DNA of 64,000 nt from Leptospirales bacterium (GCA_965243385.1 CBDEUV010000001.1:70299-134298); one strand, 5' to 3'; shown: positions 8,716-48,466, counted from the first letter of the stretch. Notes: generated from the sequence alone by a model not told the origin. A program made the numbers and translations.

Positions 8716-9612
8716 CTATTCGCAAACGGGATTGCTGACTTCGCCCAGATCGAATTCCCCGTCGTCGGTACGAATCGAAACCCGTACGACGTCGCCGTCT
8801 CTTAAATAATAAGGCGAAGACCGTTGCCGGCGCAGAAACGCGCGGCGAAAAAAACGTTCCGCCAGAAAGCGCCGGCCCACGCGTTCGAGTAGCGGCGGCT
8901 TAAAAGCGCGACCGACCGCAGTGCCCGCCGGCGTGCCGGTCAACACCAGATCTCCGGCGCGCAGATCCGCAAAACTTCGCAGAGAATCGACCAGCTCTCC
9001 GGGAGCATGAATCATATCCGCGAGGCCCGCGTCCTGACGCAGTTCGCCGTTCACATAACAGCGCAGGCGCAGTTCGGAGAGGCGGGCGCGCAGTCGATGG
9101 TCGAGCGGCGTAAGCCAGGGACCGACGGGACAGAAACCGCGATGCGATTTGCCTTCGTACCACTGCTGGCGCGCGAACTGCAGCTCGCGGGCGGAGACGT
9201 CGTTACACACGACCAGGCCCGCGATCGCGTCCAGTCCTGGCAGTGCCGCGGGCCCCGGCTGCGTTCCGCCCAAATCCCGCCCGACGATCAGGCCCAGCTC
9301 CACTTCGAAATCCAGGAGCGCCTCGCCGACCGGACGGCGCACCGGGGCCTGGCTGCCGATGATCGCTGACGCGGCTTTGCGAAAAAACATGGGCGGCGCG
9401 CCGTCAACAACTCGGCCCATTTCACGCAGCACGCCGCGATAGTTCAAACCCACGGCGGTCACGTCGCAGGGCGCGGTCACCACGGGCAGCGGATTCAGGG
9501 CGTCCACCCGGACAGTTTCGCCGGCGCCGAAGGCCGCCCGCGTCCGATCCAGCCCTCCGCTCTCTTGAATCAATTCGCGCAACGTCGACGGTTGCTTGCG
9601 CAACAACGTCAC
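8716..9612 (-). CDS. Fumarylacetoacetate hydrolase (FAH) family protein
   Basis: The C-terminal ~290 aa of ORF 8716..10137 carry FAH-family features: 'PMFFRKAASAIIG', 'LDFEVELGLIVGRDL', 'VCNDVSARELQ', 'GKSHRGFCPVGPW' and 'GDLVLTGTPAGTAVG'. The Arg-rich N-terminal ~175 codons overlap the NRPS 3' end and were discarded. The proposed start is the GTG at 9612. Confidence 0.7.
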   Translation of the reverse strand: MTLLRKQPSTLRELIQESGGLDRTRAAFGAGETVRVDALNPLPVVTAPCDVTAVGLNYRGVLREMGRVVDGAPPMFFRKAASAIIGSQAPVRRPVGEALLDFEVELGLIVGRDLGGTQPGPAALPGLDAIAGLVVCNDVSARELQFARQQWYEGKSHRGFCPVGPWLTPLDHRLRARLSELRLRCYVNGELRQDAGLADMIHAPGELVDSLRSFADLRAGDLVLTGTPAGTAVGRAFKPPLLERVGRRFLAERFFRRAFLRRQRSSPYYLRDGDVVRVSIRTDDGEFDLGEVSNPVCE

Positions 9613-9707
9613 GTCTTCGGACGCGGCGGCCCCGGCTGAAACGGGCGCGACGACCCAGACCGCCCGACCGCGATACGCGAAGCGTCCGATCTTATCACTC
9701 GTGCGGC

Positions 9708-12700
9708 TCAAACGACGGCCGCCCGAATGGCCCGACTCAGTATTTGTAGATTGTCCGCTTCGAATACGGAAAAGTGACCGCCCGCAAGAGCGCGCACGTC
9801 GAGCTGCCCGCGAATCAATTCGCGCCAGGCGGCCGGCACACGGTCCACGCCGCCCGAGGCGAAGTACACCGCGTCGATGTCGGCGGCGACGGGTCGGTAA
9901 GCCATTTCCGCGACGACGTTCGCGGCGAATACCGGCAGGACCTGCAACAGCTCGCCGCCGAATTGCGTAAAGGTGCGCAGCAAAGCGGCCAAATCGAACG
10001 CGGCCGCGCCTGTCTGCAACGCGTTCGCGGATATGCCTGGCAGTCCGGCGGCCCGGCGCAGATCGGATTCGCCTGGATACAGAACTCGCCAGAGATTGCT
10101 CCAATCGCCGCTCAGGGCCACGCCCTGTAGCGGACAATCGATCAAGAAGAGCGCCTGAATCGCTTCGCCCTCTTCGCGCAACAATCGCGACATTTCAAAT
10201 GCCACCTGGCCTCCAAAGGACCAGCCGCCGATCGCGTACGGTCCCGCGGCCTGCACGCCGCGCATGGCGCTAACGAATTCGCGGGCAATCTCGCGAGCCG
10301 AGTACCGGGGCCAGCGTCCGTCGCCCGGGGCGCCCGGAGTTTGCAATCCGAAGCTGGCGATCCCGTCGCCGAGCTCCGCCGCCAGCGGTAGATAACACAG
10401 CGAATTGCCCGCGGTGGGCGGCGCCAGAAAAAGATTTACCCGCGCGCCGGCCGGTTCTTGCAGCGGTACGATTAGATCGCCGCCTTCGCGCCCGGCGGAC
10501 TTCGCTTCCGTGTTCGGCGAAGCCTGTGGTCTTTCCTGGCCGACTCCGGCCGCTGCCAGCAGGCGCGCCTGTTCCGCGACAGTCTGATGAGCCATAAAAT
10601 CGCGGAGTTGAAACTCCGGCCAGACTTCGCGGCGCAAGCGGGCCACGGTTTGAAACGCCAGCAGGGAGTTTCCGCCCAGCATAAAAAAATTTTCGTGCAC
10701 TCCGACGCTTTCCCGATTCAGGACCGCGCTCCAGGTTTCGGCCAGGAGTTTTTCGACGGGATTCCCGGGGGCGCCGGTCGGTTCCCGATTCGCTGCGCCT
10801 CCCGGGTCGGGCAACGCCCGGCGGTCGATTTTACCGTTCGGCGTGAGCGGCCACTCATCGAGTGCGAGGAAAAACGAGGGGATCATATGACCCGGCAAGC
10901 GGTCGCGCAGAAAGCGCCCGCATTCCTCCGCCAGAGTCGCGCGCTTCGCGTTCGCGCCGTTTTCGCGCCCGTCTTCGTTCAAAACCAGATAGGCGACCAG
11001 AGCCTGATTGGCGGGCGGGTCGCCTCGCAGGCTGACGAGCGCTTCGCGTACGCCCGGCATAGCTTTCAGGTGCGTTTCAATTTCGCCTGGCTCGATTCGA
11101 TGTCCGCGCAGTTTGACCTGGTGATCCAGACGTCCCAGAAATTCGATTTCGCCGCCCGCTTCTTCGAGAAAACGACCGCGATCGCCGGTGCGATAGAGCC
11201 GCCGCCCGCCTTCTTCGACAAAGCGGGCGGCCGTACTCTCCGGCTGATTCCAATAACCCGCCGCGACTCCTTCTCCGCCGATCCAGATTTCGCCTGGCAC
11301 GCCGGCCAGCACATTCGCGCCGGCTTCGTTTCGAATATAAATCTGCGTATTCGCGATCGGCGTGCCGATGGTAATGCGCTCAGGATCCTGGACTTCGAAA
11401 ACGCACGACCAGATGGTGGTTTCCGTCGGACCGTACATATTTAAAACCCGCCCCGCAAAGCGGTCCGCGCTCAACTCCCGGGCCAGATCGTCAGGAAAAG
11501 CTTCGCCGCCGACCAGCAGCGTTTGAATCGATTTCAGCGCGGCGGCGGAGTTCTCGTCCGCCAGCAACATGCGCGCAAACGACGGCGTGCACTGCATATG
11601 GGATATATCCCAGGCTTCGATCAACTCCTGGGTGGATCGCGCTTCCTGATCCATTCGCTTCCAGCTGTTCCGGAGAGCGTCGAGGTGTATCATGTTTTCG
11701 AGCACCAGATCCGTTTCGACGCCGAAGTCGATCAGGCAGGCGATTTCATCCACCTCCAGCTCTTTTAGTTTGCGGACCAGTTCCAGGCAACTCTCCGGCG
11801 AACCGAAGAGACCCATCTCGCTCATATAACGATCCAGAGTTTGCTCGAGCATTCGGTCGGCGTCTTCGGACGAGAGCTCTTGCGCCGGCAAATCCGTAAA
11901 TGTCTTCATGGCGGATCGTGCGAGCGACGAAGAGGAACGAATATAATCGCGCAGCGGTCCGCGCGCGGTATTCAGGGCGAATTCCCGATCCGCGGCGACA
12001 AAGGCGTGCAACATCAAAACGACGCGACCCGTTCCAACATGACCTGCTTCACGACGCGCCGCACGGTACTGCTGAATACGATCGGCCAATCCTTTTAGAT
12101 CCTGGCCCAGCAGGTGGGTCAGGACGCCGGCTCCGGAACGGCCGGCCAGCCGAAAGGTCTCCGGGTTGGTCGCCGCCGTCAGGAAGACGGGCAGTTCCGC
12201 CTGGACCGGGCGCGGATGCAATTCGATCCGCACCGCTTCGCCGTCCCCGCTCCGCATTGTTAAGGATTCGCCCCGCCAGAGTCGGCGGACCTGATCGAGA
12301 TGGCTTTCCAGTACGGAACGTCGTTTTGCAAAACGATCGGGAGCCAGGGCGAAATCCGCGGGATGCCAGCCGGTGGCGAACGAAAGCTCGACCCGACCGC
12401 CGGACAGGTTGTCGACAACGCTCCACTCTTCCGCAACCCGGACCGGTTCGTGCAGAGGCAAGACCACGCTCCCGGCGCGAATTCGAATGCGCTTCGTAAG
12501 CACGGCCAGAGCCGCGGCCGTAACCGACGGGTTCGGGAATAATCCGCCGAAGCGGTGGAAATGTCGTTCAGGAAGCCAAACGCCGGCGAAGCCGCGGTCG
12601 TCCGCGAATTTCGCACCTTCCAGTAACAGGCGATAAGCGTCCGACCCGGCGCTGTCGTCGCCCGCGAAATAGAATACGCTGAAGTCCAGTTCGCGTACGC

Positions 12701-15700
12701 TCCGGGTCGGAGGCGCGTCGTCGGCCTGGATGACCACTGTGAATCCCCGACTGAGAGTCCAGAGTAATTCGAGTACGGAGATATCGAAGGAGATGCTCGT
12801 TACCGCCAGCCAGACGCCGGGATGATCGGTCCCGGGCTCGATGCGATCATCCATGCCGGCGAAGAAATTTACAACGTTGCGATGCGACACGACGACTCCG
12901 CGCGGTCGTCCGGTCGAACCGGATGTATACAGAATGTACGCAGGATCTTCCGGGCGGGCCTGCCGCCCCCCGGTCGCGCCGTCGCCGATCGCAGATAGCG
13001 ATTCCGCTTCGTCAGGCTGCGGAGAAATCAGTCGCGGGTCTCCAGGTGCGAAACCGGGCGGAGTTTCGCCTTCGTCGGATATGATGAGCTGCAGGTCAGC
13101 GTCCTGAGTGATAAACGCCAGGCGTTCCGCCGGATAGTCGGGATCGAGCGGAATATAGGCGGCGCCGGCGGCGAGCACCGCGGGTAACGCGATGGCCATT
13201 TCGAGTGAACGACGCAAATAGATACCGACCCGGACGCCGGGACCGGCCCCGCGGCTTCGCAGCCGACGCGCAAGCTCTAGAATACGCTCCTGCAGTTCGA
13301 GATAACTCAGCCGGCGATCTTCAAAGACCAGAGCGATTCGATCCGGCGTCCGTTCGACCTGGTCGAGAATCGCCGCGTCAATGCGCGCGTCCCGCGGGAA
13401 TTCACGCTCGGTATCATTCCAGCGCGCTCGTTCCTCAAGCTGAGCCGGCGTGAGCAATTCCGCCGTAAACAAGGAGTCGCGCTCGCCCCGGCTCCGCAGA
13501 GAGTCCAGAAAGAACGCGTACGTTTCGCGCAGGCCGCGAACGCTGCGCCTGGAATAACGATCGCGGCGAAACTTAAACGCCAGCCGCAGTCCGTCAGCCG
13601 TTCGCACCGCTTCGAGAATCAAGTCGAATTGCGATTCCTGTTGAACGATCTGGACTTCCGTCCAGGCCTCGCCGGAATCGCCGGCGAAATCCAGGGCGGG
13701 ATCTTTCCGGCGCGCGTCGAGAAAATTATATAGAACTTGAAATCCCGGAGTACGATCGACCGCTCGCGGCAGATCAAATTGTTCGACCAGCAGCGAATAC
13801 GGATAATCGCGGTGGGCCTGGGCCTTCGCCGCGGTATCGCGGACTGAGGCCACGAATTCTCGAAGCGAGGGATCGCCTTCCACAATGGAACGGATCAACA
13901 CGGCGTTGGAAAAATATCCCGGCACGTCGTCGAAGCCCGTTTCCGGGCGAATATCGGTAAGCATCCCGATAACCAGATCCCGCTCTCCGGATAGCCGATG
14001 CAATATTCCCAGAAAGGCTGCGAGCAGAACCGTCGAGAGGGTCGCGTCCAGATCGCTTCCGAATTCCTGCAGACTGTGCAACGACGCCTCATCCAAAAAA
14101 AAGGCTTCCAGTTGCTCCGCTCCGCCCGCGCCGCGTTCGCGTTCCAGCGGAAGACTCACGTCGGGCAATCCGCCGTCGCGGCCGGTCACTTCGCGCCAGA
14201 AATCCGCCAGCTGCGCTCCCCGGGGTCCGGCGAGCATGGCGCGCTGCCCGGCGACGAAATCGCTGTAGTCGTAGAGCGGGCGCTGCCGCGCCGCGATGCC
14301 GCGCGCATAAATCTCCCGCAACTCGCGAACCAGCAGTTGGATCGATCGGTGGTCTACGATTAAATGATGAAAGCCGAGGAGTAAGTACGTGGCGCCTTCG
14401 CTATCGGGCAGCATGACCGCGCGCCACAGCGGGCCTGCCTCCAGATCGAAGGGGCGACGGTGCTCGACCTGAAGCTGTTGAATCGCGGCGGCGACATCGT
14501 GCTGCGAATGAGGATTCGCGTCGCCGGCATCATCCCGGCTATGGCGGCCGGCACCCGCATGCGCGTCGTCTATTGTGGTGAGCTCAACGCGTTTGCATAT
14601 CGGAGCCGGCGCCGAATAGATGGGACCGGTCGGCCGGCCGCTTCGAGCGGGAAAAGTCGAACTCAGAATCGGATAACGCGCCGCCAGACACTGCAACGCC
14701 AGATTCAGACGCTCTTCGTCCAGAGCTTCCGGAACGCGAAGCAGGCTGGCCACATTGTAGGCCGTGTCCTCTGGATCGGCCTGGTACAGAAACCAGAGCG
14801 CGGACTGACCGTGACTGAGGCCCGCCGTATCTCCGGACGAAAGTCCGGGGTCGGCAAAGGCGTGCGGCGGCGCGAATTCAGAATCAGCGTTTCGAGCGCC
14901 CCTTGCCAGTTCGTCCAGCCGGGCGCCCGTCAATACGGCTCCGGGCTGGATATCAATGCCGTAGCTTTCACGCAGATGACGTCGCAGGCGCAAGGCCAGC
15001 AGGGAGTCGACTCCCAGAGCGACCAGAGAACGGTTCCAGTCGGGATCGCCTGAAATGAACGGGCTAAGAAAATCGCGAATGCCGTTTCGCAATTGTCCGG
15101 GATCGACTGCGCCCACGGAGCGTTCGGACCACTCATCCCGCAACTCGGCGCGCAGGCTTTCGGCCAGGGCCGCCACTGCGCCCGGCCGGCGCTCCTCCGG
15201 GGGCCCTGCTGCCGACGAATTCGGCGGATCGTCCGCGCCGATCTTCGATCCCGACCGCTTTCCGAGAAATGCGAAGATCTGCGCTTCCGTTGGCCGCGGT
15301 AGATCTTCGAGTCGGTCATCAGGATGTCTCAAAATCCGCGCGACGACGACGCGGTAGTGCTCGGCCATCGCGAGAATGGTCTCTTTGGAAAACAGGTCTT
15401 CGGAGTATTCCCATACCGTGCGCAGGCGGTGCTTCTGGTCTTCCAGATACAAAAACAAATCGAAGTCGACCCCCGCCCCCACCGGGCCCGCGGCTTCGAC
15501 GAAGATATCTTCCAGTTCCAGGTTTGCGCGGGGGGTATTGAGCAACGAAAACAGAACGCGCGCGGGCTGCTGAGGACCGCGCGATAGACGAGCGGCGTAC
15601 TGAAACGGCAGATCCTGGTGCGCAAAGGCGCCGTCCGCCGCAATGCGCGCCCGTTCGATGAGTTCGACGCAGGTGGGGTTGCCGGATAAATCGGCGCCCA

Positions 15701-16679
15701 GCAGAACCAGGTTGTTAAAATAGCCGACCAGGTTCTCCAGCCCGGGACGATTGCGACAGGCTACCGGCGAGCAGACGAAAAATTTATCGCGCCGGCTGTG
15801 CCCGAAGTGATACAAAACGACGAAGAACGCGGCGAGCGCCACGGAATTGAGAGTCGTACGCCGGGCTCCGGCGAATCTTTTTAGATCGCGGGCGAAACTC
15901 TCGGGCCATTGAATTTGCAGCCGGCGTCCGGTATGCCGGGCATGCGCCTGCGCTTCGGGCAGCGGCGGCGAAACCAGGTCGCGTTCGCCGATTACGGAAT
16001 TCCAGTATCCGAGCAGATCTTCGAGCAAACCGGGTGTCGCCAGCCAGCTTCTCTGCCAGGCCGCGAAATCCGCGAAATTGAGCGGCAACGTTGGAAGTTG
16101 CGAAAGCTGATCTGCTTCGCCGTTACGACAGGCCGCATAAAGGCGCGCCAGGTCGCGATGGATTGTATCCAGGGACCAGTAATCGAAGGCGATGTGATGA
16201 AATTCCAGACACAGAATATGTAGCTTCGCTTCGACCCGCCAGAGACGCGGGCGAAAGGGCGCTTCGCTTCGCAGGTCGAAAGGGATCTCAGGAATCGCGT
16301 TGAGCATCTCCGTTAATTCGCCTTCGTCGACGACCGCGGGCATCGTTTCCACGACCAGGGGCCGGCGCGCGAAGGCGCTGAGCCGCATCCGCGGACTGCC
16401 CCGCTTTTCAAAAAATCGAGCGTCAAGAATGGGATGGCGTTCCCGCAGGCGCACGAGGGCTAATTCCAGCGCCGGCAGCTCGAGTGCGCCGCGCAGCCGA
16501 TAACACAGCGCCCGGTTATGGCCGGAGTGACCCGAAAAGCTCGCCTCCCAGATCCGTTCCTGGCCGGGAGTCAGCGCCGCGTCGGCTTCCGCCAGACCCG
16601 CCTGTAAGGGCGGCCCGGAGTTCTGCAATTCCAGCAGTCGCCGCAAACCGAACAACGCGCCCGTATCTGTTCCGCTCAT
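9708..16679 (-). CDS. Non-ribosomal peptide synthetase, C-T-C-A(LLM monooxygenase insert)-T-TE
   Basis: 2,323 aa.
- C1: 'FHHIAFDYWS' (~16.18 kb).
- T1: 'LGVDSLLAL' (~15.0 kb).
- C2: 'FHHLIVDHRS' (~14.36 kb).
- A motifs: 'YILYTSGSTGRPRG', 'SISFDISV', then 'NMYGPTETT', 'YRTGD' and 'GRLDHQVKLRGHRIE'.
- Luciferase-like block, between 'FDIS' and 'YGPTE': 'LDFSVFYFAGDD...GVWLPERHF...ATGWHP'.
- T2: 'LGGNSLLA' (~10.67 kb).
- TE: 'GGWSFGG' (~10.22 kb).
A good RBS (GAGAGGAG) precedes the ATG. Confidence 0.9.
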   Translation of the reverse strand: MSGTDTGALFGLRRLLELQNSGPPLQAGLAEADAALTPGQERIWEASFSGHSGHNRALCYRLRGALELPALELALVRLRERHPILDARFFEKRGSPRMRLSAFARRPLVVETMPAVVDEGELTEMLNAIPEIPFDLRSEAPFRPRLWRVEAKLHILCLEFHHIAFDYWSLDTIHRDLARLYAACRNGEADQLSQLPTLPLNFADFAAWQRSWLATPGLLEDLLGYWNSVIGERDLVSPPLPEAQAHARHTGRRLQIQWPESFARDLKRFAGARRTTLNSVALAAFFVVLYHFGHSRRDKFFVCSPVACRNRPGLENLVGYFNNLVLLGADLSGNPTCVELIERARIAADGAFAHQDLPFQYAARLSRGPQQPARVLFSLLNTPRANLELEDIFVEAAGPVGAGVDFDLFLYLEDQKHRLRTVWEYSEDLFSKETILAMAEHYRVVVARILRHPDDRLEDLPRPTEAQIFAFLGKRSGSKIGADDPPNSSAAGPPEERRPGAVAALAESLRAELRDEWSERSVGAVDPGQLRNGIRDFLSPFISGDPDWNRSLVALGVDSLLALRLRRHLRESYGIDIQPGAVLTGARLDELARGARNADSEFAPPHAFADPGLSSGDTAGLSHGQSALWFLYQADPEDTAYNVASLLRVPEALDEERLNLALQCLAARYPILSSTFPARSGRPTGPIYSAPAPICKRVELTTIDDAHAGAGRHSRDDAGDANPHSQHDVAAAIQQLQVEHRRPFDLEAGPLWRAVMLPDSEGATYLLLGFHHLIVDHRSIQLLVRELREIYARGIAARQRPLYDYSDFVAGQRAMLAGPRGAQLADFWREVTGRDGGLPDVSLPLERERGAGGAEQLEAFFLDEASLHSLQEFGSDLDATLSTVLLAAFLGILHRLSGERDLVIGMLTDIRPETGFDDVPGYFSNAVLIRSIVEGDPSLREFVASVRDTAAKAQAHRDYPYSLLVEQFDLPRAVDRTPGFQVLYNFLDARRKDPALDFAGDSGEAWTEVQIVQQESQFDLILEAVRTADGLRLAFKFRRDRYSRRSVRGLRETYAFFLDSLRSRGERDSLFTAELLTPAQLEERARWNDTEREFPRDARIDAAILDQVERTPDRIALVFEDRRLSYLELQERILELARRLRSRGAGPGVRVGIYLRRSLEMAIALPAVLAAGAAYIPLDPDYPAERLAFITQDADLQLIISDEGETPPGFAPGDPRLISPQPDEAESLSAIGDGATGGRQARPEDPAYILYTSGSTGRPRGVVVSHRNVVNFFAGMDDRIEPGTDHPGVWLAVTSISFDISVLELLWTLSRGFTVVIQADDAPPTRSVRELDFSVFYFAGDDSAGSDAYRLLLEGAKFADDRGFAGVWLPERHFHRFGGLFPNPSVTAAALAVLTKRIRIRAGSVVLPLHEPVRVAEEWSVVDNLSGGRVELSFATGWHPADFALAPDRFAKRRSVLESHLDQVRRLWRGESLTMRSGDGEAVRIELHPRPVQAELPVFLTAATNPETFRLAGRSGAGVLTHLLGQDLKGLADRIQQYRAARREAGHVGTGRVVLMLHAFVAADREFALNTARGPLRDYIRSSSSLARSAMKTFTDLPAQELSSEDADRMLEQTLDRYMSEMGLFGSPESCLELVRKLKELEVDEIACLIDFGVETDLVLENMIHLDALRNSWKRMDQEARSTQELIEAWDISHMQCTPSFARMLLADENSAAALKSIQTLLVGGEAFPDDLARELSADRFAGRVLNMYGPTETTIWSCVFEVQDPERITIGTPIANTQIYIRNEAGANVLAGVPGEIWIGGEGVAAGYWNQPESTAARFVEEGGRRLYRTGDRGRFLEEAGGEIEFLGRLDHQVKLRGHRIEPGEIETHLKAMPGVREALVSLRGDPPANQALVAYLVLNEDGRENGANAKRATLAEECGRFLRDRLPGHMIPSFFLALDEWPLTPNGKIDRRALPDPGGAANREPTGAPGNPVEKLLAETWSAVLNRESVGVHENFFMLGGNSLLAFQTVARLRREVWPEFQLRDFMAHQTVAEQARLLAAAGVGQERPQASPNTEAKSAGREGGDLIVPLQEPAGARVNLFLAPPTAGNSLCYLPLAAELGDGIASFGLQTPGAPGDGRWPRYSAREIAREFVSAMRGVQAAGPYAIGGWSFGGQVAFEMSRLLREEGEAIQALFLIDCPLQGVALSGDWSNLWRVLYPGESDLRRAAGLPGISANALQTGAAAFDLAALLRTFTQFGGELLQVLPVFAANVVAEMAYRPVAADIDAVYFASGGVDRVPAAWRELIRGQLDVRALAGGHFSVFEADNLQILSRAIRAAVV

Positions 16680-16698
16680 AGATAGCTCCTCTCGCCAT

Positions 16699-17367
16699 CT
16701 AGGCCGGTGCTTGCATGCGGATCGCGATGGCGGGTAGATCGTGATGCGGCCGCTGGCGAATTACGATGCAGTCCGCGATATCGAGCCACTCGAAGTACGG
16801 CGCGAAGGCCGAACGGATATTATTCACGCGGCGCTCTTTTAGTTCCCGCTCGCGCGCGGGCGTTTCCGGTTTGCCCTGGTTGGTGCTGCTGATAATCAAT
16901 AAACGCGCACCGGGAGCCGCGTACGTCCGCAGCGTTCGAGCATAACACTCGTAAAAATTCACCGGCATGCCGTGCAAACAACCGCGGTCGAAAAGCGAGT
17001 GATAGATCGGCTGGTCCGCGGTATCGCGACAAATATCCACGACGTCGTACGACAGCCGGCCTTCGATTTCAGGAAAATTTTTGCGCGCGGTGTCGATGGC
17101 CGACGGAGCGACGTCGACGCCTTTCACTGCGAATCCCTGCTCCACAAGCCAGGCGGCCAGTTCGCCCCCGCCGCAACCAATGTCCAGCAACGGCCCACCG
17201 GGTACGAAAAAGCCGTCGCGGACCGCAAGGTTCAGAGCGTCGGGCACGCCGTCGACCCGCCAGAAGGGATCGTAATCTTTGCGCGACCAGCCGTATTCCC
17301 AGACGGAACTCATCTGGTCCATAGCCCAGTCGAGCCCCGCGGTTTTTTTTCCACCCGGGCCGGTCAT
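16699..17367 (-). CDS. SAM-dependent methyltransferase
   Basis: 222 aa. Motif I is 'LLDIGCGGGELAAWLVEQGFAVKGVDVAPSAI'. The start overlaps the stop of the upstream carrier gene (ATGA). Confidence 0.75.
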   Translation of the reverse strand: MTGPGGKKTAGLDWAMDQMSSVWEYGWSRKDYDPFWRVDGVPDALNLAVRDGFFVPGGPLLDIGCGGGELAAWLVEQGFAVKGVDVAPSAIDTARKNFPEIEGRLSYDVVDICRDTADQPIYHSLFDRGCLHGMPVNFYECYARTLRTYAAPGARLLIISSTNQGKPETPARERELKERRVNNIRSAFAPYFEWLDIADCIVIRQRPHHDLPAIAIRMQAPA

Positions 17368-17630
17368 GACGCACCGCTTTCGACCACGAGTTGCGATATC
17401 GCGGCGATGCTCTGAAAATTTTCGAACATGACCTGCTCGGGCGCGATCTGAATCTGGTAGTTTTCTTTGATAAAATTTATCGTTCGGATAATCGCCATCG
17501 AATCCAGAATGCCCAGAGCAATCAGATCCGTTTCCGACTCCAATTCCTCTTCGAGCGCCTCTACCAGAATTTGATCGACAATGAATTTTTTTAATCCCCC
17601 CCGGATGTCTTCCAGTACCAGGTTAGCCAT
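17364..17630 (-). CDS. Stand-alone acyl/peptidyl carrier protein
   Basis: 88 aa and acidic. The phosphopantetheine attachment context is 'LGILDSMAI'. It lies immediately downstream of the adenylating enzyme. Confidence 0.75.
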   Translation of the reverse strand: MANLVLEDIRGGLKKFIVDQILVEALEEELESETDLIALGILDSMAIIRTINFIKENYQIQIAPEQVMFENFQSIAAISQLVVESGAS

Positions 17631-17631
17631 T

Positions 17632-19251
17632 TTATGTTCCTCCTTTTATTAATTCCTGTCCGGTCATTTCAGTGAGCAGAGCCCGCCGATCGATTTTGCC
17701 CGTGGACGTTCGCGGAAACTCCCGCATTAAGATGATCTCATCGGGAACCATATACGCCGGGAGGCGCTCCGCACAGTAGGCCCGCAGACCCGCCGGAGTC
17801 AGTTCGCTGTCCGGATTCGCAATCAGTACGCAGGCCTTCAGAATATTTCCGAATTCGTCGTGCGGTACAGGTACGATCGCGCCTTCTTCCACGGCGGGGT
17901 GCGCGGCGAGCCGCGCCTCGACTTCACCGATTTCAATACGATATCCGCGGCTTTTGATCATTCCGTCCCGGCGCCCGACGAATCGAAAATCGCCGGCCTC
18001 ATCCACGCGCACGATATCGCCTGTGCGATAGGCCGACCGCTCCCGGAGCTGCGAAATTTTTTCCGGATTCAGAAAAGCCTTTCGATTTTCCGGAGTCCGG
18101 TTCCAGTAGCCGCGCATCACTCCGGCGCCGGCCGCGCAGAGTTCGCCTTCGTCGCCGGGCGCGGGATGGGTGATCGCATTCCCTTCGTCGTCGATCAGAA
18201 AAACGCGCGTATTGGCGCAGGCCCGGCCGATGGGCAGACTGCTTTCATCCGTCCCGGGAAGTTCCGCGACCCGATAATAAGTACAAACGTTGGTTTCCGT
18301 CGGACCGTACAGGTTATAGTACTGCGGGCCCGGCAGCAGCGAACGCAATCGGCGCAGATGTTTGAGCGGAAAGACCTCCCCCGCGAAAAGCACATAACGC
18401 AGGGCGCTCAAATCCTGCGCCGGCAGGTCGCCGCGCAGAGTCAACTGGATCAGCGCCGAAGGAACCGAGTACCAGACCGTAATGCGTCGTTCCGCGACGA
18501 ATTGCGCGAGCCGGGTCGGGAACAGGGCGACTTCGGGGGGAATCAAATGGACCGCCGCGCCGGCCGCGAAGCTGACGAACAGGTCGAAAATCGAAAGGTC
18601 GAAATGAAAAGGCGCGTGCGAGCTCACCCGATCATCCGGCTTCAACTGAAACTGCTCCCCGGCCCATTCGATGAAAGTCAGAGCCGCGCGATGATCGATC
18701 ATAACCCCTTTCGGCGCGCCGGTTGAACCGGAGGTATACAGGATATAAGCGAGTGATTGTTCGGTACTATCGCGCGTTAAGTCGCAGGCGTCGCGATCTA
18801 CGCGCTCCTGCGCGGCGGCGGAGCCATGCACGGAAATCATCGGAACGTCGAGGACACCGCCGGCCCGCAGCCGTTTCTCGCTCTTTTCGTCCACGACCAA
18901 CGCGCGACACTCACAATCCCGCGCAATCAAGGCCAGCCTGGCCTTCGGCGCGTTCGGATCCAGCGGCACATACGCGGCCCCCGCCTTTACGGCGCCGAGC
19001 AGAGCCGCGACGGTAGCCGGCGATTTGCGAGCGCACACTCCCACGCGATCGCCCGGGCGGACCCCCGCCGCCGTCAGAGTCCGCGCGAAGTCGTCGGCCA
19101 GCGCGTTCAACTCCGCGTAGCTGAGCTCCGCTTCGACGTCGACTACGGCGGGACGGGTCGGATACTCCCGGGCCGAACGTTCTATGATATGCTGAATCAG
19201 GTACATGGCGATTTTAGTTTTACCGGCGGATTGAGCGATGCGAATGAACAT
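17632..19251 (-). CDS. Stand-alone adenylation enzyme (amino acid--carrier protein ligase, PltF/CloN4/DltA-like)
   Basis: AMP-binding motifs: 'YILYTSGSTGAPKGV', 'YNLYGPTETNV', 'YRTGD', 'GRRDGMIKSRGYRIE' and 'TSTGKIDR'. There is no C or T domain. An alternative start is the ATG at 19206 (MYLIQHII...). Confidence 0.85.
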   Translation of the reverse strand: MFIRIAQSAGKTKIAMYLIQHIIERSAREYPTRPAVVDVEAELSYAELNALADDFARTLTAAGVRPGDRVGVCARKSPATVAALLGAVKAGAAYVPLDPNAPKARLALIARDCECRALVVDEKSEKRLRAGGVLDVPMISVHGSAAAQERVDRDACDLTRDSTEQSLAYILYTSGSTGAPKGVMIDHRAALTFIEWAGEQFQLKPDDRVSSHAPFHFDLSIFDLFVSFAAGAAVHLIPPEVALFPTRLAQFVAERRITVWYSVPSALIQLTLRGDLPAQDLSALRYVLFAGEVFPLKHLRRLRSLLPGPQYYNLYGPTETNVCTYYRVAELPGTDESSLPIGRACANTRVFLIDDEGNAITHPAPGDEGELCAAGAGVMRGYWNRTPENRKAFLNPEKISQLRERSAYRTGDIVRVDEAGDFRFVGRRDGMIKSRGYRIEIGEVEARLAAHPAVEEGAIVPVPHDEFGNILKACVLIANPDSELTPAGLRAYCAERLPAYMVPDEIILMREFPRTSTGKIDRRALLTEMTGQELIKGGT

Positions 19252-19255
19252 CGCG

Positions 19256-20992
19256 TCAGGTGGCGGCCCCCTGCCTGCTGCAGTCCGCGATCATTTCCGG
19301 TGAAATCGCGTAGTCGTCGAACCAGCGATTGCCCAGTGGCCGGTCTACCTGTACGATCGCGTCCGTAGAATACGTCAGGACCTTTCGGTTCCAATCGACG
19401 ATAGCCTTGCGCAACCCTGCAGGGGCGCGCCGGTCTTCGCGCAACACCGCATCGTATTCTTCCGTCAGCGCTCGCGATCGTTCCAGACGATCCAGGGCGG
19501 CGGCGCCGTCCGCAGGACTGAGCCGTCCGGTCTCCATTTTATGGCGCGTCATGCTTCCGAGCGCGTCATACACCAGCGGCAAAAATTGTTTCCTGGAAAG
19601 CCACCTGGTTTCGTAATTCAGGCGATAGTTCCAGCGGGGTTCTTCCAGAGCGGCGACGTGTTCGCTCAGCCCGCGAAAGAATACGCGATAGCCGTGCTTT
19701 TCCGGTTCTTCAAAAAAGCGGGAGCCTGGATCCAGAAAAGGCGCCATTGGAGTCAGTGTGGGAACGACCCGCGTTTCGTGCGCGAAGCGATCCATGAGTC
19801 GTCTTGAATAGGCGACGGTTCGCATGACCGACTCGGGGGTCTGACGCGGCATACCGATAAAAAACCAGACGTAAACGCCTTTTACCCCTTCGCCGAGGGC
19901 CATCTCAATCCAGTCTTCCATCTGTCGCATCGAATAGACGCCCCGCCCCGACAGACGACTCACGTCGGCGTCGCTCGACTCTGGTGAAAGATTGATGTAC
20001 AGGCCCGCCCGGCCCGCGGCGTGAACCATGCGACGCAGGGATGCGCGCTTCGCGAGGTGAAATTGTTCGAGGGCGACCGAGCCGACGCGTCCGCTGTCGC
20101 CGACAGCCTGCAGGTACTCCACCAGGCGGCTTGTGGGTTCCGAATAGGCCTGCAACGAATATATATTCACGGGAGCCGGCAGCCGGTTGATCGATTCGAC
20201 TTCCCGATCCAGAGCGCGCTGTCCGCGAAAGATCACGGTCTTTTTATCCAGTCCCATGATATTGCGGTAGGCGAAACGCGACCCGCCGCACCAACCGCAG
20301 TCGTGCGCGCAACCGGAGTTGGGCAGGATCATCAGTGTCGGCAGATTCAGGAGATTGATTCCGGTCGGCAGATAATACGACCAATCCACGTCCGTATCGT
20401 TGAGCTTCTCCGGTAAATAGTTGAACGGGGTTTCGTTAATATCGCCGCTGCGATCCTTAAAGCTCAGGTTCGGAATATTTTTTAGTTCGTCGCGACGACT
20501 CTCACAGATCGCGCTTACCAGTTTACAGGTCGGCTCCAGCGTATCGTATCCGGCGATCACGACGTCCACCTGCGGGTAACGAATCAATTCGTCCCGATAG
20601 TACGTGGCCGATATGCCCCCGAAGATGACGAATGTTTCCGGCCGGCGCCGTTTGAGTTCCGCGGCCGCCGCCAGAGAGCCCTGGCAATGGATCATCCAGT
20701 GCAAATCGAAGCCGATCACCGGAGCATCCAGTCGTTCGAGCAAACGTCCCGCGTCGAGATCCGGGAAACGTAACATCAACGACGCCAGGTTAACGATCTC
20801 CACCCGCAGGCCTCTGGCCTTCAGATAACTGGCCAGGGATAAAAAACCCACGGGATACATTTCGAAGACCGGAGTGATATTCACGCTGAGCGAATCCGCG
20901 AGAGCACCGAAGATCAGGTCGTCGCGCTCCCGAAAGTCGAAGACCGACGGGGCGTGGACGAGAATCAAATCTGCCTGAATCGTAGTACTCAT
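19256..20992 (-). CDS. B12-binding-domain radical SAM enzyme (class B, methyltransferase-like)
   Basis: 578 aa. An N-terminal Rossmann-like, cobalamin-type domain is followed by a CxxxCxxC cluster, 'GCAHDCGWCGG'. Confidence 0.75.
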   Translation of the reverse strand: MSTTIQADLILVHAPSVFDFRERDDLIFGALADSLSVNITPVFEMYPVGFLSLASYLKARGLRVEIVNLASLMLRFPDLDAGRLLERLDAPVIGFDLHWMIHCQGSLAAAAELKRRRPETFVIFGGISATYYRDELIRYPQVDVVIAGYDTLEPTCKLVSAICESRRDELKNIPNLSFKDRSGDINETPFNYLPEKLNDTDVDWSYYLPTGINLLNLPTLMILPNSGCAHDCGWCGGSRFAYRNIMGLDKKTVIFRGQRALDREVESINRLPAPVNIYSLQAYSEPTSRLVEYLQAVGDSGRVGSVALEQFHLAKRASLRRMVHAAGRAGLYINLSPESSDADVSRLSGRGVYSMRQMEDWIEMALGEGVKGVYVWFFIGMPRQTPESVMRTVAYSRRLMDRFAHETRVVPTLTPMAPFLDPGSRFFEEPEKHGYRVFFRGLSEHVAALEEPRWNYRLNYETRWLSRKQFLPLVYDALGSMTRHKMETGRLSPADGAAALDRLERSRALTEEYDAVLREDRRAPAGLRKAIVDWNRKVLTYSTDAIVQVDRPLGNRWFDDYAISPEMIADCSRQGAAT

Positions 20993-21023
20993 GATGGTCT
21001 GGCCGGAGCGGACTGCCAGCCGC

Positions 21024-22451
21024 TCAAACGGTGTTTGTGGCCCGCCGCTTTCGGGTTCCCGCGGGGAATAGAAGCTCCAGGGACTCGTCCCGCCGGCAGG
21101 TTTTGGAGTAAAAGTCTTCGCGGTTGATCACCAGGTTTTTATAACCTTCAAACATTTTCTGATCGCGGCCTATAAGATCGAAGAGCTCTTCGTACTTCGC
21201 CGAGTTTTCGAAGAAATCTCCGGCCAGAATATAGTGACCGGCGGCCAGGGCGTCTGCGGAATCCCGCGCGAGAACGGACCCCGCCGCGGCGAAATTAACA
21301 GCGTGCGGGTCGTAATACAGACGAATCAGCTTGTACACCACGTCGTACGCGCGGTTGATCAGATCGTAGACCTGGACCAACGGGCCTTTGCCGACACCGT
21401 GCTCTTCCGGATGCTCAAGGATCTGATGCAGTGCGTCGCCCAATAGCGTTCCGCTTTTCATCGAAAGATATACGCCGCTGGAAAAGATCGGATCGATAAA
21501 ACGCGAAGCGTCTCCGACCAGCGCGAAATTCGCTCCGAATTTTTCTTCGGAAAAATATGAATAGTCGCCTTCGACTCGCGGCGCCATAGTCAGCTCCGCG
21601 CCCGCGGTCAGCTCTCGGGTAAACTCGGTCTTCTGGATTTCTGCTCGAAAGAGATCGGCTTTCCAGTCTTCGCCGCCGTCTTTCTGAATCGCTTCTTTCT
21701 GAACCGCTTCTTTCGCCGCCTGAAAGCCGGCGTTGTCCATGACCACTCCCAGAGTCACCGTGTCGGGTCCGAGCGGAAAGATCCACATCCAGCCTTTGCG
21801 ATCCCCGCCGAGATACATGATGATCGAAGTGCCCTCTTCAAGGCCGCCGCTCAATTCGCGTATTCCGGAGAAGTGGCTCCAGATCGCCGTCCGGGCCAGG
21901 CCCGCGTGCGGTTTGCGCTGGCCTCGCTTGTTTGAAAGAAATCCGGAACGTCCCGTGGCATCGACCAGGAATCGAGCGCGATATTCGCGTTCGCCGCCAT
22001 CGGGGCCGTTCGCTCTGACCAGAACCCCTGCTCCCGCTCCTTCCAGGTCGACCGCGGTCGCCCGGGTTTCTTCGCGCACGACGACACCCTTCGAGCGGGC
22101 GTTTTCCAGCAGGATCTGATCGAATTCGGCACGTTTGACCTGAAAGGAAAGATAGCTCTCGTCGTGCAACACGTGATCGAAGCACCAATAGGTGGAATAC
22201 GAATTGTCCGGACTGGCGAAACGCACGCCGGGTTTACGAACGAAACTGCCCTTCATTTGATCGAGCACGCCGATTCGTTTGAAGATGTCGTAACAAAACG
22301 GCAGCAACGATTCGCCCACGTGCTCCCGGGGGAATTTCTCTTTTTCGAGCAGGAGTACGGAATGACCTTGCTGGGCGAGTACGCAGCTCGTGGTCGAACC
22401 GGCCGGTCCACCGCCCATTACGATTACGTCGGCGTCATATTTGTTGTTCAT
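21024..22451 (-). CDS. FAD-dependent oxidoreductase, probable flavin-dependent halogenase (PltA/CmlS type)
   Basis: 475 aa. Motifs: dinucleotide fold 'VIVMGGGPAGS', 'REHVGESLLP', a WxWxIP-like 'GWMWIFPL' and 'GDASRFIDPIFSSGV'. Confidence 0.7.
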   Translation of the reverse strand: MNNKYDADVIVMGGGPAGSTTSCVLAQQGHSVLLLEKEKFPREHVGESLLPFCYDIFKRIGVLDQMKGSFVRKPGVRFASPDNSYSTYWCFDHVLHDESYLSFQVKRAEFDQILLENARSKGVVVREETRATAVDLEGAGAGVLVRANGPDGGEREYRARFLVDATGRSGFLSNKRGQRKPHAGLARTAIWSHFSGIRELSGGLEEGTSIIMYLGGDRKGWMWIFPLGPDTVTLGVVMDNAGFQAAKEAVQKEAIQKDGGEDWKADLFRAEIQKTEFTRELTAGAELTMAPRVEGDYSYFSEEKFGANFALVGDASRFIDPIFSSGVYLSMKSGTLLGDALHQILEHPEEHGVGKGPLVQVYDLINRAYDVVYKLIRLYYDPHAVNFAAAGSVLARDSADALAAGHYILAGDFFENSAKYEELFDLIGRDQKMFEGYKNLVINREDFYSKTCRRDESLELLFPAGTRKRRATNTV

Positions 22452-22493
22452 CGTGATTTTCTCTTTTCCTGTACATTCAGTCGCCCGCTGCGC

Positions 22494-23678
22494 TCAGAGT
22501 CCGAGCAGGCCCGCAATCAGATTTTTTTGAATTTCGGTGGTGCCCGAATACAGCCGGCTGGCCAGGGCGTCCCTTAACTCTCGCTCAATTTCAGTTTCCT
22601 GGAGATAGCCTCTACCCCCGAAAATCTGCAGCGCGTCCAAACAGGTCTGAACATAAGCTTCACTGACGACGCACTTCACCATAGCCGCCTGCATAAAGAT
22701 CATCTCGCCCTGTTGTTTGCTCCAGGCGGCGCGGTACAGCAGGCCGCGGGCCTGCTCCAGACGCAGCTGCATGTCGACGATTTTTTCCGCGATCATCTGG
22801 TATTTGCCGATCGCCTGGCCGCCCTGCTTTCTTTTGCGTGCGAAGGCGATGCACTGCTCCATGATTCGGCGGATTGTCCCGATCGCGGGCGCCAGAATAA
22901 AAGCGCGCTCCCACTCCATAATATGATTGAATAGAGCCATGCCCGCGCCTTCGGCGCCGAGCAATCGATTCGCCGGCACGCGACAGTCTTCGAGAATTAA
23001 TTCGCCCATTTGAGCGGTGCGAACGCCCATTTTCGAATTTTTGATCACCCGGAGACCTTCCGTTTCCCGATCCACCAGAAAACAACTGATGCCGTCCGCG
23101 CCCGATCCACTTCCGGTGCGCGCGAAAACCAGAAAGATGGTCGCAACGGGCCCGTTCGTAACGAACAGCTTTCGGCCGTTTAGTATATAATCCGCGCCGT
23201 CGTTCAGGGCGCGCGTAGTCATAGCATAAATATCCGAGCCGGCCGCAGCTTCGCTCGCAGCGTGCGCTCCAATGAATTCGCCGGAGCACAGCCCCGGTAA
23301 GTACTCTGCTTTCTGGGAATCCGTTCCGAAGTGCAGAAGGGGCGTCTGACAGGCCCACATCTGCGCGTTCAAACCGAAAACCAGCCCGTTGTCGCGACAA
23401 GCGTACCCAAAGGCTTCCAGCCCGCGAATGGTCGTTAAAAGATCATATTCGCCCCCGCCGTAAACGCGGGGCACGATCGTTCCGGGAATTCCCCGGGAAC
23501 AACACTTGCGCCAGCCCTCCGCGTTAAAACTTTGCTCCGCGTCGAGAGCGATGATCTCCGAATCGATCCGGGAGTCGCGGACGAATTCCAGGATTTCCTG
23601 GTGATGCGATTCCTGCCCGGCAGACCACTCGAAATTCATGTCGGAACCCGTAACGAGAACGTCATACTCGAAAATCAC
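22494..23678 (-). CDS. Acyl-CoA dehydrogenase family flavoprotein (PltE/CloN3-like candidate)
   Basis: 394 aa with ACAD N, middle and C-terminal domains ('FIGAHAASEAAAGSD', 'FVTNGPVA', 'LQIFGGRGY', 'RLYSGTTEIQKNLIA'). The listed start is a GTG. An ATG at 23639 is an alternative. Confidence 0.85.
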   Translation of the reverse strand: MIFEYDVLVTGSDMNFEWSAGQESHHQEILEFVRDSRIDSEIIALDAEQSFNAEGWRKCCSRGIPGTIVPRVYGGGEYDLLTTIRGLEAFGYACRDNGLVFGLNAQMWACQTPLLHFGTDSQKAEYLPGLCSGEFIGAHAASEAAAGSDIYAMTTRALNDGADYILNGRKLFVTNGPVATIFLVFARTGSGSGADGISCFLVDRETEGLRVIKNSKMGVRTAQMGELILEDCRVPANRLLGAEGAGMALFNHIMEWERAFILAPAIGTIRRIMEQCIAFARKRKQGGQAIGKYQMIAEKIVDMQLRLEQARGLLYRAAWSKQQGEMIFMQAAMVKCVVSEAYVQTCLDALQIFGGRGYLQETEIERELRDALASRLYSGTTEIQKNLIAGLLGL

Positions 23679-23976: not shown

Positions 23977-25511
23977 GAATTCTGAACGCGGCGTGCGGAA
24001 TTCCTCCTGAAGGCCGTCGCAACTGAGATTTCCATGACCCCGAAGAACATCCCCCCACAGCATGGCCCGAAGCCGGCGACCGGCATGTCGGTTTTTGATT
24101 CAGCAATGAAACACGTTAGATTTAGCAAGCGTACATACAGTACAAATATAAAGGTCGCATTCTGTCTGGGACTTTTGCCGCCGGAGTTGGCCGCATTGAT
24201 TCCGTCATCCACGAGAGCGGACTGGCGAAGGCGCGGTTTCACGCATTTTTTTGGATTGAATTTCCCGGGCCCCGTACTCGGAGACGTTCAGTTCCACCGC
24301 GAATTCGTCAGCGTCCCGGCGTTGCGTGCGATCGCGAAGGCTTTGTTTCGACTGTATCGCTTTTATGCGCGCGCCACCGGGCAAATTCGGGGGGCTAAGA
24401 AATTCTGGAAAAACAATCGTGAAAAGATCGTGGCGGCAGTGCAGTCTCTGCGGCCTGCTTTTGGCTTGAAGCGCGCCTGTCGTATGCTGCGAATTACGGT
24501 TTCGAAATTCTATCGCTGGCGAGACGCGGTCGCCTGTGTTTCGTCCAGCAGAGGCGTGTGTCGCAAGCGACATCCCACCCAGATTTCGTCCGCCGAGGAG
24601 CGCGCGGTTCGCGATTACGTGAACGATCCCCGTTTCGCCGGTTTCAGTATTGTAAATATCTGGCTGCAGATGATGCGGGACGGAGCGGCGGCGTTTGGCC
24701 TCTCTACGTTTCGAAAGTACGCCCGAATGTGCGAAACCACGCCCGAAAGATTTCACAAAGCACGACCACCGGCCGGTATTCGCGCGGAGCGAAAGCTGGA
24801 GCTACTGCATATGGATAGCACGGTTTTTCATCTGGCGGATCGCCGACGCATGTGGATTCATTTGATCATCGACAATTTCTCTCGCGCGATTCTGGGCTGG
24901 CGACTGATGGAAAGCAATCGTTCGCTGGAAGTCGCGGCCAATCTGCGCGAGGTTTGCGAAACGTACAAGCTGCGCGAAAAGGGCGTCGTGGTTCTCGCGG
25001 ACGACGGTTCCGAAAACCAGGGCGCGGTCACTGAATTTCTCGCGGAGCCGGGCGGCATGGTTCGCCGACTGATCGCCCAGGTGGACATTCGGCCCTCGAA
25101 CAGCATGGTGGAAGCCGTCAACAAGGTTTTGAAAAATCAGTTTCTTTTACCGCTGAAAACCGCGTTGCGCACCGCTCGCGAGCTTGAAAAAGCGCTCGCT
25201 CAGCAAATCGAACGCTATAATCATACGCCGAAATTCGCGCTGCATGGTCTGACTCCGGCCGAAGTGCTGGCGGGGCAGATTCCCGATCCGAAAATTTTCG
25301 CTGACGCATTGAGAGACGCGCGAATCGAACGTATTGCTGTGAATCGCGCGGCAGCCTGCGGAGTTTGTTAGAACGAGCGCGAGAAAACGGGCGACCCCGA
25401 GCCGCTCAGTCTTTTTCGATACGCGGTCCCGGGTTCATTAGAGGGGGTTCGGATACCCGGATTCCGATTCTCGTTTTGGCGTGGTGAGTGCAGCGCGCCG
25501 TGCAGAATTGG
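23977..25511 (+). mobile_element. IS-like element (DDE transposase gene bracketed by related palindromic motifs)
   Basis: The transposase ORF is flanked by 'GAATTCTGAACGCGGCGTGCGGAATTC' (23977-24003) and '...GCGCGCCGTGCAGAATTGG' (25493-25511). I could not define the exact termini or a target-site duplication. Confidence 0.4.
24034..25371 (+). CDS. DDE (rve/integrase-core) transposase
   Basis: The catalytic core pattern is 'LHMDSTVF...HLIIDNFSRAILGW...VLADDGSENQG...MVEAVNKVLKNQF'. The N-terminus looks HTH-like. The true start is probably an internal ATG (e.g. MSVFDSAMKH...). Confidence 0.8.
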   Translation: MTPKNIPPQHGPKPATGMSVFDSAMKHVRFSKRTYSTNIKVAFCLGLLPPELAALIPSSTRADWRRRGFTHFFGLNFPGPVLGDVQFHREFVSVPALRAIAKALFRLYRFYARATGQIRGAKKFWKNNREKIVAAVQSLRPAFGLKRACRMLRITVSKFYRWRDAVACVSSSRGVCRKRHPTQISSAEERAVRDYVNDPRFAGFSIVNIWLQMMRDGAAAFGLSTFRKYARMCETTPERFHKARPPAGIRAERKLELLHMDSTVFHLADRRRMWIHLIIDNFSRAILGWRLMESNRSLEVAANLREVCETYKLREKGVVVLADDGSENQGAVTEFLAEPGGMVRRLIAQVDIRPSNSMVEAVNKVLKNQFLLPLKTALRTARELEKALAQQIERYNHTPKFALHGLTPAEVLAGQIPDPKIFADALRDARIERIAVNRAAACGVC

Positions 25512-25636
25512 TTGGGTCTTAGGGTGGTTGGTTTCGCCCCCGAAATGGTTTCTATTTCGCAGGGCTTCCGGCACGACTTAGTCTCGCACCTCGTGAGGAG
25601 GAAAGAATGTTCGATGCGCCTTGCTCGCCATCGGAC
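25491..25636. repeat. Cassette-flanking repeat, copy A (~146 bp)
   Basis: Aligns base-for-base, with scattered substitutions, to 28627-28771 in direct orientation. It contains a CGAAAT-N7-ATTTCG stem. It also has 'GAGGAGGAAAGA-ATG' followed by a 14-codon mini-ORF (25607-25651). Confidence 0.85.
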
Positions 25637-25657
25637 AGATTTGATGAATAAAATTCA

Positions 25658-26038: not shown

Positions 26039-26080
26039 ACTGTTTGAGTTTTATCCGAAAGCCAAATATCGCCCTGTATG

Positions 26081-47635: not shown

Positions 47636-47645
47636 ATCGTCCTGC

Positions 47646-48461: not shown

Positions 48462-48466
48462 AATAT

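Follow-up and report, generated by a model that had tools for sequence, protein, structure and literature searches.

The 64,000-nucleotide stretch of DNA from a Leptospirales bacterium analyzed here (GCA_965243385.1 CBDEUV010000001.1:70299-134298; hereafter the window, with positions counted from its first letter) carries at 17364-23678 five co-directional minus-strand open reading frames (ORFs). In the order of transcription they encode an acyl-CoA dehydrogenase (ACAD)-family flavoprotein, a flavin-dependent halogenase (FDH), a B12-binding radical S-adenosylmethionine (rSAM) enzyme, a free-standing adenylase and a carrier protein, with 42, 31, 4 and 1 nt between successive genes. The minus strand runs on unbroken past the carrier gene through genes for a TPMT-fold methyltransferase, a nonribosomal peptide synthetase (NRPS) and an FAA-hydrolase-family protein; the biosynthetic unit is an eight-gene, 15-kb operon at 8716-23678, of which the five-gene cassette is the front part. 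The original prediction for this DNA, made by inspection of the sequence, had described a tightly spaced, co-directional cassette for a halogenated and/or C-methylated pyrrole-2-carboxyl unit. All five ORFs of the cassette were confirmed, with Pfam matches that lie mostly far above cut-off, and the pyrrole-cassette interpretation is supported by the comparisons presented below. Taken together with the downstream NRPS, they indicate that the product of the operon, assembled on a thiotemplate, is probably a small substituted pyrrole-2-carboxamide.

The adenylase gene (17632..19251, minus strand) encodes a PltF-like, free-standing L-Pro-type adenylating enzyme of 539 aa with an AMP-binding match of 312.9 bits; an alternative start lies at Met16 (nt 19206), and the gene call in a strain variant is 524 aa long. 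Alignment to GrsA-PheA gave the specificity code DLFYLALVCK, with a numbering confirmed by the GrsA sequence, which gave DAWTIAAICK at the canonical positions. PltF (6o6e), the best free-standing adenylase match among solved structures (347 bits), has the code DLLYLALVCK in the HMMER alignment and is identical to the window enzyme at nine of the ten positions, and a second solved Pro-carrier ligase (7thn; DLFYIAWVCK) is identical at eight. As judged from these residues, the adenylase bears a type II Pro specificity code, in line with the proline substrate suggested originally, and a non-proline code was not seen. The adjoining gene (17364..17630, minus strand) encodes a type II carrier protein of 88 aa (PP-binding, 28.2 bits) with the phosphopantetheine Ser43 in LGILDSM; its top solved-structure matches include PltL, PigG and the carrier chain of 6cxt, which we take to be the Bmp1 carrier domain.

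The first gene of the operon (22494..23678, minus strand) encodes the putative prolyl-carrier-protein dehydrogenase, an ACAD-family protein of 394 aa with the Acyl-CoA_dh N, M and C domains of Pfam. The PigA and RedW models give it 390 and 366 bits, respectively, whereas no other ACAD model gives it more than 264 bits. Like AnaB (409/377 bits) and Bmp3 (430/392 bits) on the same two models, it falls below the NCBI equivalog cut-offs, which mark narrow orthologue groups and do not decide membership for either the ACAD or the rSAM enzyme. In alignments of the window ACAD with AnaB, Bmp3 and PigA, the canonical catalytic Glu is replaced by Ser (Y/F-S-G-T) in all four, and the Glu of a WE[R/K] motif is common to them; a catalytic Glu has been described as conserved in AnaB and Bmp3 (PMC10849742). 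These features place the protein, as far as can be read from its sequence, in the prolyl-carrier dehydrogenase group and not among the fatty-acyl-CoA dehydrogenases, as the original prediction had anticipated.

Among solved structures, AnaB (4irn) is by far the best match of the window ACAD, with 444 bits and 50% identity versus 277 bits for Bmp3 and 274 bits for PigA, both at 38% identity. AnaB is reported (Mann et al. 2011, Moncoq et al. 2013) to catalyze a two-electron oxidation only, to the pyrroline, and is presumably the sole member of the family for which a halt after two electrons, at pyrroline-5-carboxyl-acyl carrier protein, was demonstrated. PltE, RedW, CloN3, HrmM and the Dkx and Leu enzymes were not among the 59 ACADs of a neighbor-joining tree, in which AnaB falls together with the window enzyme, that of a Leptospiraceae metagenome-assembled genome (MAG; locus L005) and three myxobacterial enzymes. 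This group sits within a large clade of ACADs linked to CloN6-type rSAM enzymes, and the ACAD in the CouN3 position of a Streptomyces rishiriensis locus (L062) groups with PigA. The foremost alternative to pyrrole formation follows from this closeness: the ACAD would be AnaB-like and stop at the (S)-pyrroline-5-carboxyl-S-carrier, the rSAM enzyme would alkylate a pyrroline or proline carbon, the FAD enzyme would act on the enamine tautomer or on another substrate, and a substituted dehydroproline amide or proline amide would result instead of a pyrrole. We consider this unlikely. The AnaB clade also holds ACADs that lie beside pyrrole halogenases of the Mpy16/PltA type; for example, a Microcoleus locus (L174) encodes an ACAD 61% identical to AnaB, and the FDH of that cassette is 55% identical to Mpy16, which we take to be a proven pyrrolyl-S-carrier halogenase. 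Because L174 pairs an AnaB-like ACAD with a Mpy16-like FDH, closeness to AnaB does not appear to be good evidence against pyrrole formation. The NCBIfam scores, moreover, do not separate AnaB from Bmp3, so that little can be read from sequence similarity as to how many electrons are removed, and the characterized relatives of both tailoring enzymes, FDH and rSAM, act on aromatic pyrroles. The context, namely the FDH, the CloN6-type rSAM enzyme and the precedent of L174, thus favors a four-electron oxidation to the pyrrole by analogy, without proving it.

The third gene (19256..20992, minus strand) encodes a B12-rSAM enzyme of the CloN6/CouN6 family, a putative pyrrole C-methylase of 578 aa with a B12-binding domain (PF02310, 55.6 bits). 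Its Radical_SAM match (PF04055, 27 bits) is just below the cut-off of 29.5, and the CxxxCxxC motif is present as CAHDCGWC at residue 228. The link to CloN6 drawn in the original prediction was borne out by the S. rishiriensis locus L062, in which ACAD, adenylase, carrier and rSAM genes follow the N3-N4-N5-N6 order and the rSAM enzyme in the CouN6 position is 49% identical to the window enzyme over residues 5-572, nearly the full length; from the name of the organism and the gene order we infer that L062 is the published cou cluster. On TIGR04190 the window enzyme scores 377 bits versus 412 bits for the L062 enzyme, itself also below the cut-off. More than 1500 proteins match the family, all at ~50% identity, and many of them are labeled CloN6/CouN6 by JGI; a search of solved structures with the rSAM enzyme returned no homologue.

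A scan of species-representative genomes with the rSAM enzyme yielded 80 loci; in ~55 of them a related ACAD is encoded no more than 10 kb away, in most cases together with a PltF-like adenylase. A few also hold an FDH, and its type differs among them: the FDH of L005 belongs to the window clade, those of L026 and L074 are of the PltA/Mpy16 type (the Kibdelosporangium banguiense enzyme of L074 scores 653 bits to 5buk), that of L038 is Bmp2-like, that of L063 is CmlS-like and that of L050 is very distant. Since the rSAM family co-occurs in other lineages with at least three FDH types besides that of the window, the pairing of halogenase and methylase arose several times. The loci L004 and L006-L019 (Stappia, Mesorhizobium and Hyphomicrobiales) share a conserved block of ACAD, carrier protein, rSAM enzyme, a protein of unknown function, ketosynthase III and enoyl-CoA hydratase, with no PltF-like adenylase within 10 kb; in this block the rSAM and ACAD pair serves another use, one not yet described.

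A second alternative, which we regard as quite unlikely, concerns the reaction of this enzyme: instead of a single methylation at C5 it might methylate iteratively or at another ring position, or catalyze a B12 reaction other than methylation, which would leave the TPMT-like enzyme as the only ordinary source of a methyl group. Members of the family do occur where a PltF-like adenylase is lacking, as in the Stappia and Mesorhizobium blocks, and have no solved relative; according to reviews, neither the mechanism nor the structure of CloN6 or CouN6 has ever been investigated, and the reaction may proceed by a radical or by a TsrM-like route (PMC9204698, PMC12931638). Set against this, deletion of cloN6 led to loss of the 5-methyl group only (Westrich 2003, as cited in PMC10849742), and the family is uniformly ~50% identical across phyla, the enzyme in the CouN6 position included, which suggests one conserved reaction.

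The second gene (21024..22451, minus strand) encodes the FDH, a protein of 475 aa with Trp_halogenase (86.8 bits, cut-off 21) and FAD_binding_3 matches. It contains GGGPAG and both halogenase motifs cited in the original prediction, WMWIFP at residue 221 and FIDPIFSSG at residue 318, and its Lys71 aligns with the catalytic K71 of CmlS. The best model is that of the CmlS halogenase (183 bits), and the top ten solved-structure matches, at 127-161 bits, include nine named halogenases, among them 8zop, CmlS, Bmp2, PltA, RadH and ChlB4. The enzyme is 30-35% identical to the characterized FDHs Mpy16, Bmp2, CndH, CmlS and 8zop, and has many unnamed homologues at ~50% identity. That it is a hydroxylase or reductase of the FAD_binding_3/geranylgeranyl-reductase superfamily, giving a halogen-free product, is very unlikely despite this low identity, the change of WxWxIP to WMWIFP (WCWLFT in the closest relative, L005) and the weaker matches to the QhpG monooxygenase (133 bits) and the geranylgeranyl-reductase family (120 bits, cut-off 158.8), since every reductase or monooxygenase model stays under its own cut-off and under the CmlS model, the structural matches are nearly all halogenases, and the catalytic Lys and the FxDPxFSxG motif are conserved throughout the clade to which the enzyme belongs. 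The expectation of a halogenase-like enzyme, as opposed to a geranylgeranyl reductase, has therefore stood.

The placement of this halogenase within the characterized carrier-tethered pyrrole clades did not hold. In a tree with reference sequences rebuilt from HMMER alignments, the window FDH falls outside the PltA/Mpy16 clade and outside Bmp2, and forms a clade apart together with the FDH of L005 and those encoded directly after the adenylase and carrier genes in L085, L087 and L089, at 60-62% core identity. Throughout this clade the WxWxIP motif reads W-x-W-[IV]-F-P, with Phe replacing Ile, apart from the WCWLFT of L005. The pyoluteorin-type enzyme set that had been proposed thus largely stands, with two corrections: adenylase and carrier match, the ACAD is nearest to AnaB and not to PltE or PigA, and the halogenase is not of the PltA type. 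Seven of the eight independent clade members examined, the window enzyme counted, adjoin an ACAD, a PltF-like adenylase and a carrier of ~90 aa, and this association strongly suggests, as guilt by association, that the substrate of the FDH is the pyrrolyl-S-carrier. At least four of the eight loci hold a second FDH, which is of the PltA/Mpy16 type wherever compared; this suggests that the two halogenase clades divide labor in pyrrole cassettes and hints at a role of the window FDH complementary to that of PltA-type enzymes. In L085, L087, L089, L174 and L175 (cyanobacteria, Chloroflexota and unassigned metagenome contigs), two halogenases are often seen, that of the window clade directly after the carrier gene and the other of the PltA/Mpy16 type.

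Downstream of the cassette, the NRPS gene (9708..16679, minus strand) encodes 2323 aa with the domain order C1-T1-C2-A-T2-TE (C, condensation; T, thiolation; A, adenylation; TE, thioesterase), its last module being of the amide-forming MtaG/MelG kind. Active-site motifs are present in C1 (HHIAFD at 161), T1 (Ser559), C2 (HHLIVD at 771), T2 (Ser2005) and TE (GWSFG at 2152). A luciferase-like monooxygenase (MOx) domain (11670..12683, minus strand; residues 1338-1644) splits the A domain between motifs A4 (FDISV, 1298) and A5 (NMYGPTE, 1747), and matches Bac_luciferase with 180.8 bits and TIGR04020 with 482.6 bits (cut-off 244). The A-domain code, DILQLGMIWK, is of a Gly type as known from published codes; position 278 was read by eye past the insertion, where MAFFT had misplaced it. 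In MtaG and MelG, α-hydroxylation of a terminal Gly frees the upstream chain as a primary amide (PMC11411415). The first NRPS module has no A domain, and T1 must receive its amino acid from the free Pro adenylase, acting in trans, or from the Gly A domain, acting in cis. A comparable arrangement is found in Corallococcus, Myxococcus and Citreicoccus (L024, L025 and L070), where rSAM, ACAD, adenylase and carrier genes are followed by a free-standing A-less C-T protein and then by a large NRPS/polyketide synthase (PKS), so that the hand-off from a pyrrole cassette to an A-less C-T unit recurs. The ACADs of these three loci are the nearest relatives of the window ACAD and AnaB from cultured organisms.

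Based on these assignments, we propose the following pathway. By homology, the PltF-like adenylase would load L-proline onto the 88-aa carrier, the ACAD flavoprotein would oxidize the prolyl-S-carrier to the pyrrolyl-2-carboxyl-S-carrier, and the FDH would place Cl or Br on the carrier-bound pyrrole. The CloN6-type enzyme would methylate a ring carbon, by analogy with clorobiocin C5, and since C5 would be methylated, C3 and C4 would be left for halogen. As read from the domain order, C1 of the NRPS would use the pyrrolyl-S-carrier as donor and acylate the amino acid on the A-less T1, which would be Gly if supplied by the in-cis A domain or Pro if supplied by the free adenylase, and C2 would add Gly on T2. 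The MOx domain within the Gly-specific A domain would then hydroxylate the Gly α-carbon, and collapse of the hemiaminal would give a primary amide, with the TE clearing glyoxylate as proposed for MtaG/MelG. More speculatively, a further methyl group, for instance at the pyrrole nitrogen, may come from the TPMT-like methyltransferase, and any role of the FAA-hydrolase-family protein is likewise a matter of speculation. As the cassette feeds a two-module, amide-forming NRPS, a very small halo-methyl-pyrrole-2-carbonyl amino amide is the probable product.

Several observations weigh against this pathway. The closest characterized relative of the ACAD, AnaB, is reportedly a two-electron oxidase, and the tree of 59 ACADs has no characterized four-electron enzyme in the window subclade. 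The clade of the FDH is without a characterized member and has the altered WxWxIP motif. No flavin reductase gene is found in the operon, and the operon gives no sign of what loads T1. Lastly, CloN6 and CouN6 are, according to the same two articles, known from genetics only and never reconstituted (PMC9204698, PMC12931638), so that substrate, timing and position of the methylation rest on analogy.

A more far-reaching proposal, which we put forward tentatively and consider possible but doubtful, is that the window FDH is the founder of a third group of halogenases for carrier-tethered pyrroles, distinct in function and with a regiochemistry that complements the PltA-type enzymes and would explain their frequent co-occurrence, and that it works here alone with a CloN6-type methylase in a spirochaete. 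The product would then be a minimal halo-5-methylpyrrole-2-carboxamide, the GyrB ATP-site warhead of kibdelomycin, amycolamicin and clorobiocin.

The enzyme kit is of a known kind, and the host, an uncultured Leptospirales bacterium, the halogenase lineage and the product are uncharacterized. According to reviews, the CloN6-family methylase is still biochemically and structurally uncharacterized more than 20 years after its discovery; a short, self-contained operon would be a convenient system for its reconstitution as a B12/rSAM pyrrole methylase. The operon could also help to assign function and regiochemistry to a large, unstudied FDH clade that occurs widely among Chloroflexota, cyanobacteria, myxobacteria and actinomycetes. 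The predicted halogenated 5-methylpyrrole-2-carboxamides overlap the gyrase-B-binding pharmacophore of known antibiotics. Such an NRPS in Leptospirales would in addition widen the known taxonomic range of halogenated pyrrole metabolism, the spirochaetes being, to our knowledge, a phylum hardly known for secondary metabolism.

The remaining operon genes flank the NRPS. The TPMT-fold SAM methyltransferase gene (16699..17367, minus strand; PF05724, 37.6 bits, cut-off 26) overlaps the carrier gene by 4 nt; a metagenome scan returned no close relative of its product, the best match being 33% identical and lying on a 2.9-kb contig. The last gene of the operon (8716..9711, minus strand), which overlaps the NRPS gene by 4 nt, encodes the FAA-hydrolase-family protein (PF01557, 178 bits), whose NCBIfam matches are generic and at most 110 bits. 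The notion that this protein and the methyltransferase mimic MelJ and MelK was dropped for want of evidence, and our literature search returned nothing usable on the MelJ/MelK amide-to-ester enzymes.

Upstream, the operon is bounded by a divergent gene for an rve-family transposase (24034..25371, plus strand; PF00665), which marks the edge of the cluster and is found at this site in three contigs of strain variants as well; on the downstream side, the neighboring gene is convergent and encodes a Na+/H+ exchanger. The transposase is the limit of the cluster because the 5088-aa ORF beyond it (30035-45301, minus strand), considered as a PKS/NRPS partner, was rejected with zero Pfam matches. A promoter and terminator scan of the window performed no better than on shuffled sequence, so that the operon boundaries rest on gene spacing and strand alone. 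Both an Rfam scan of the window at gathering cut-offs and a tRNA scan were empty.

The whole operon with the transposase is also present in three other assemblies at ~98% nucleotide identity. In comparison with the ~98%-identical strain variant L171, the ratio of nonsynonymous to synonymous polymorphism (pN/pS) is 0.07-0.25 in all seven operon genes compared, with the value for the FDH computed on a codon alignment to accommodate a 5-aa indel. Given these ratios, the operon genes are not decaying and are kept by selection. The indel (QKEAI, in frame, near residue 251 of the FDH; the L171 gene is at 6695-8107) lies in a surface-looking stretch of low conservation. The nearest relatives of the rSAM enzyme, the FDH and the ACAD are those of the Leptospiraceae MAG of L005, and for an RND pump encoded in the window the best named relatives come from a Leptospirales MAG (85%), Spirochaetia (53%), Leptonema illini (42%) and Leptospira (37-39%). 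Among the 90 loci fetched and compared, recurrence of the full operon architecture was not shown beyond close strain variants, and the methyltransferase and the MOx domain had no homologues there.

Other parts of the window are of a different character. The segment at 24000-30000 has a GC content of ~0.52 versus 0.605 in the operon and contains the transposase gene and ORFs without Pfam matches, and the arrangement from the 5088-aa ORF to the transposase differs among strain variants; 24000-30000 looks like a variable, possibly mobile junction. The 5088-aa ORF is no synthase and lacks Pfam matches in both halves; the small ORFs on either side of it (28855-30038 and 45298-46254) lack them too. 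Just upstream of the 5088-aa ORF, 46382-48608 (minus strand) encodes an APH-type kinase that weakly matches TCAD9 (ternary-complex-associated domain) and a PNP_UDP_1 phosphorylase-superfamily protein, and together with the giant ORF these could form a conflict or defense system. ParB-like and ParA-like genes lie at 52786-54639. The source contig, of metagenomic origin (ENA ERZ25074452, ctg12097_141x_c), is 380,518 bp long, with a name ending in "_c" (possibly circular) and a coverage label of 141x; Leptospira species have a second chromosome of ~300-350 kb, and the contig possibly represents a secondary replicon in a Leptospirales bacterium.

Compared with known systems, the cassette resembles that of pyoluteorin (PltF/PltL/PltE/PltA), as well as Bmp4/Bmp1/Bmp3/Bmp2 and PigI/PigG/PigA, in combining a Pro adenylase, a small carrier and an ACAD oxidase with a flavin halogenase acting on the tethered ring. 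It differs in that its halogenase, at 30-32% identity to the PltA/Mpy16 and Bmp2 types, belongs to a clade of its own, in that its ACAD is 38% identical to Bmp3 and PigA and 50% identical to AnaB, and, as regards pyoluteorin, in handing over to an NRPS C domain and not to a PKS ketosynthase. With clorobiocin and coumermycin (CloN3-N6/CouN3-N6) it shares ACAD, adenylase, carrier and B12-rSAM enzyme as one block. Unlike these, the window has the order ACAD-FDH-rSAM-adenylase-carrier with the halogenase inside the cassette, an ACAD 38% identical to that of L062, and no acyl-transfer genes of the CloN1/N2/N7 type, the acyl group going to the NRPS.

In the anatoxin-a system (AnaC/AnaD/AnaB), AnaB is the nearest characterized ACAD and has the Y-S-G-T motif and the WER Glu in common with the window enzyme. 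AnaB presumably stops at the pyrroline and feeds a PKS, and we know of no halogenase or rSAM enzyme in the anatoxin pathway, whereas both tailoring enzymes of the window are of types that act on pyrroles. The NRPS is like MtaG/MelG of myxothiazol and melithiazol in its C-A(MOx)-T-TE layout, the position of MOx between A4 and A5 and the Gly code (layout according to PMC11411415). It departs from them in that the module is fused behind an extra A-less C-T unit and would end a tiny pyrrole peptide, not a long PKS/NRPS chain.

Kibdelomycin and amycolamicin carry 3,4-dichloro-5-methylpyrrole-2-carboxyl units. Our literature search returned nothing usable on a gene cluster for either compound, and L074 serves here as a genomic proxy of unconfirmed identity. 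As in the window, a flavin halogenase and a CloN6-family rSAM enzyme lie in one neighborhood in L074, its halogenase differing in being of the Mpy16/PltA type. By analogy, the dichloro-methylpyrrole of kibdelomycin and amycolamicin is the chemotype expected from the window cassette.

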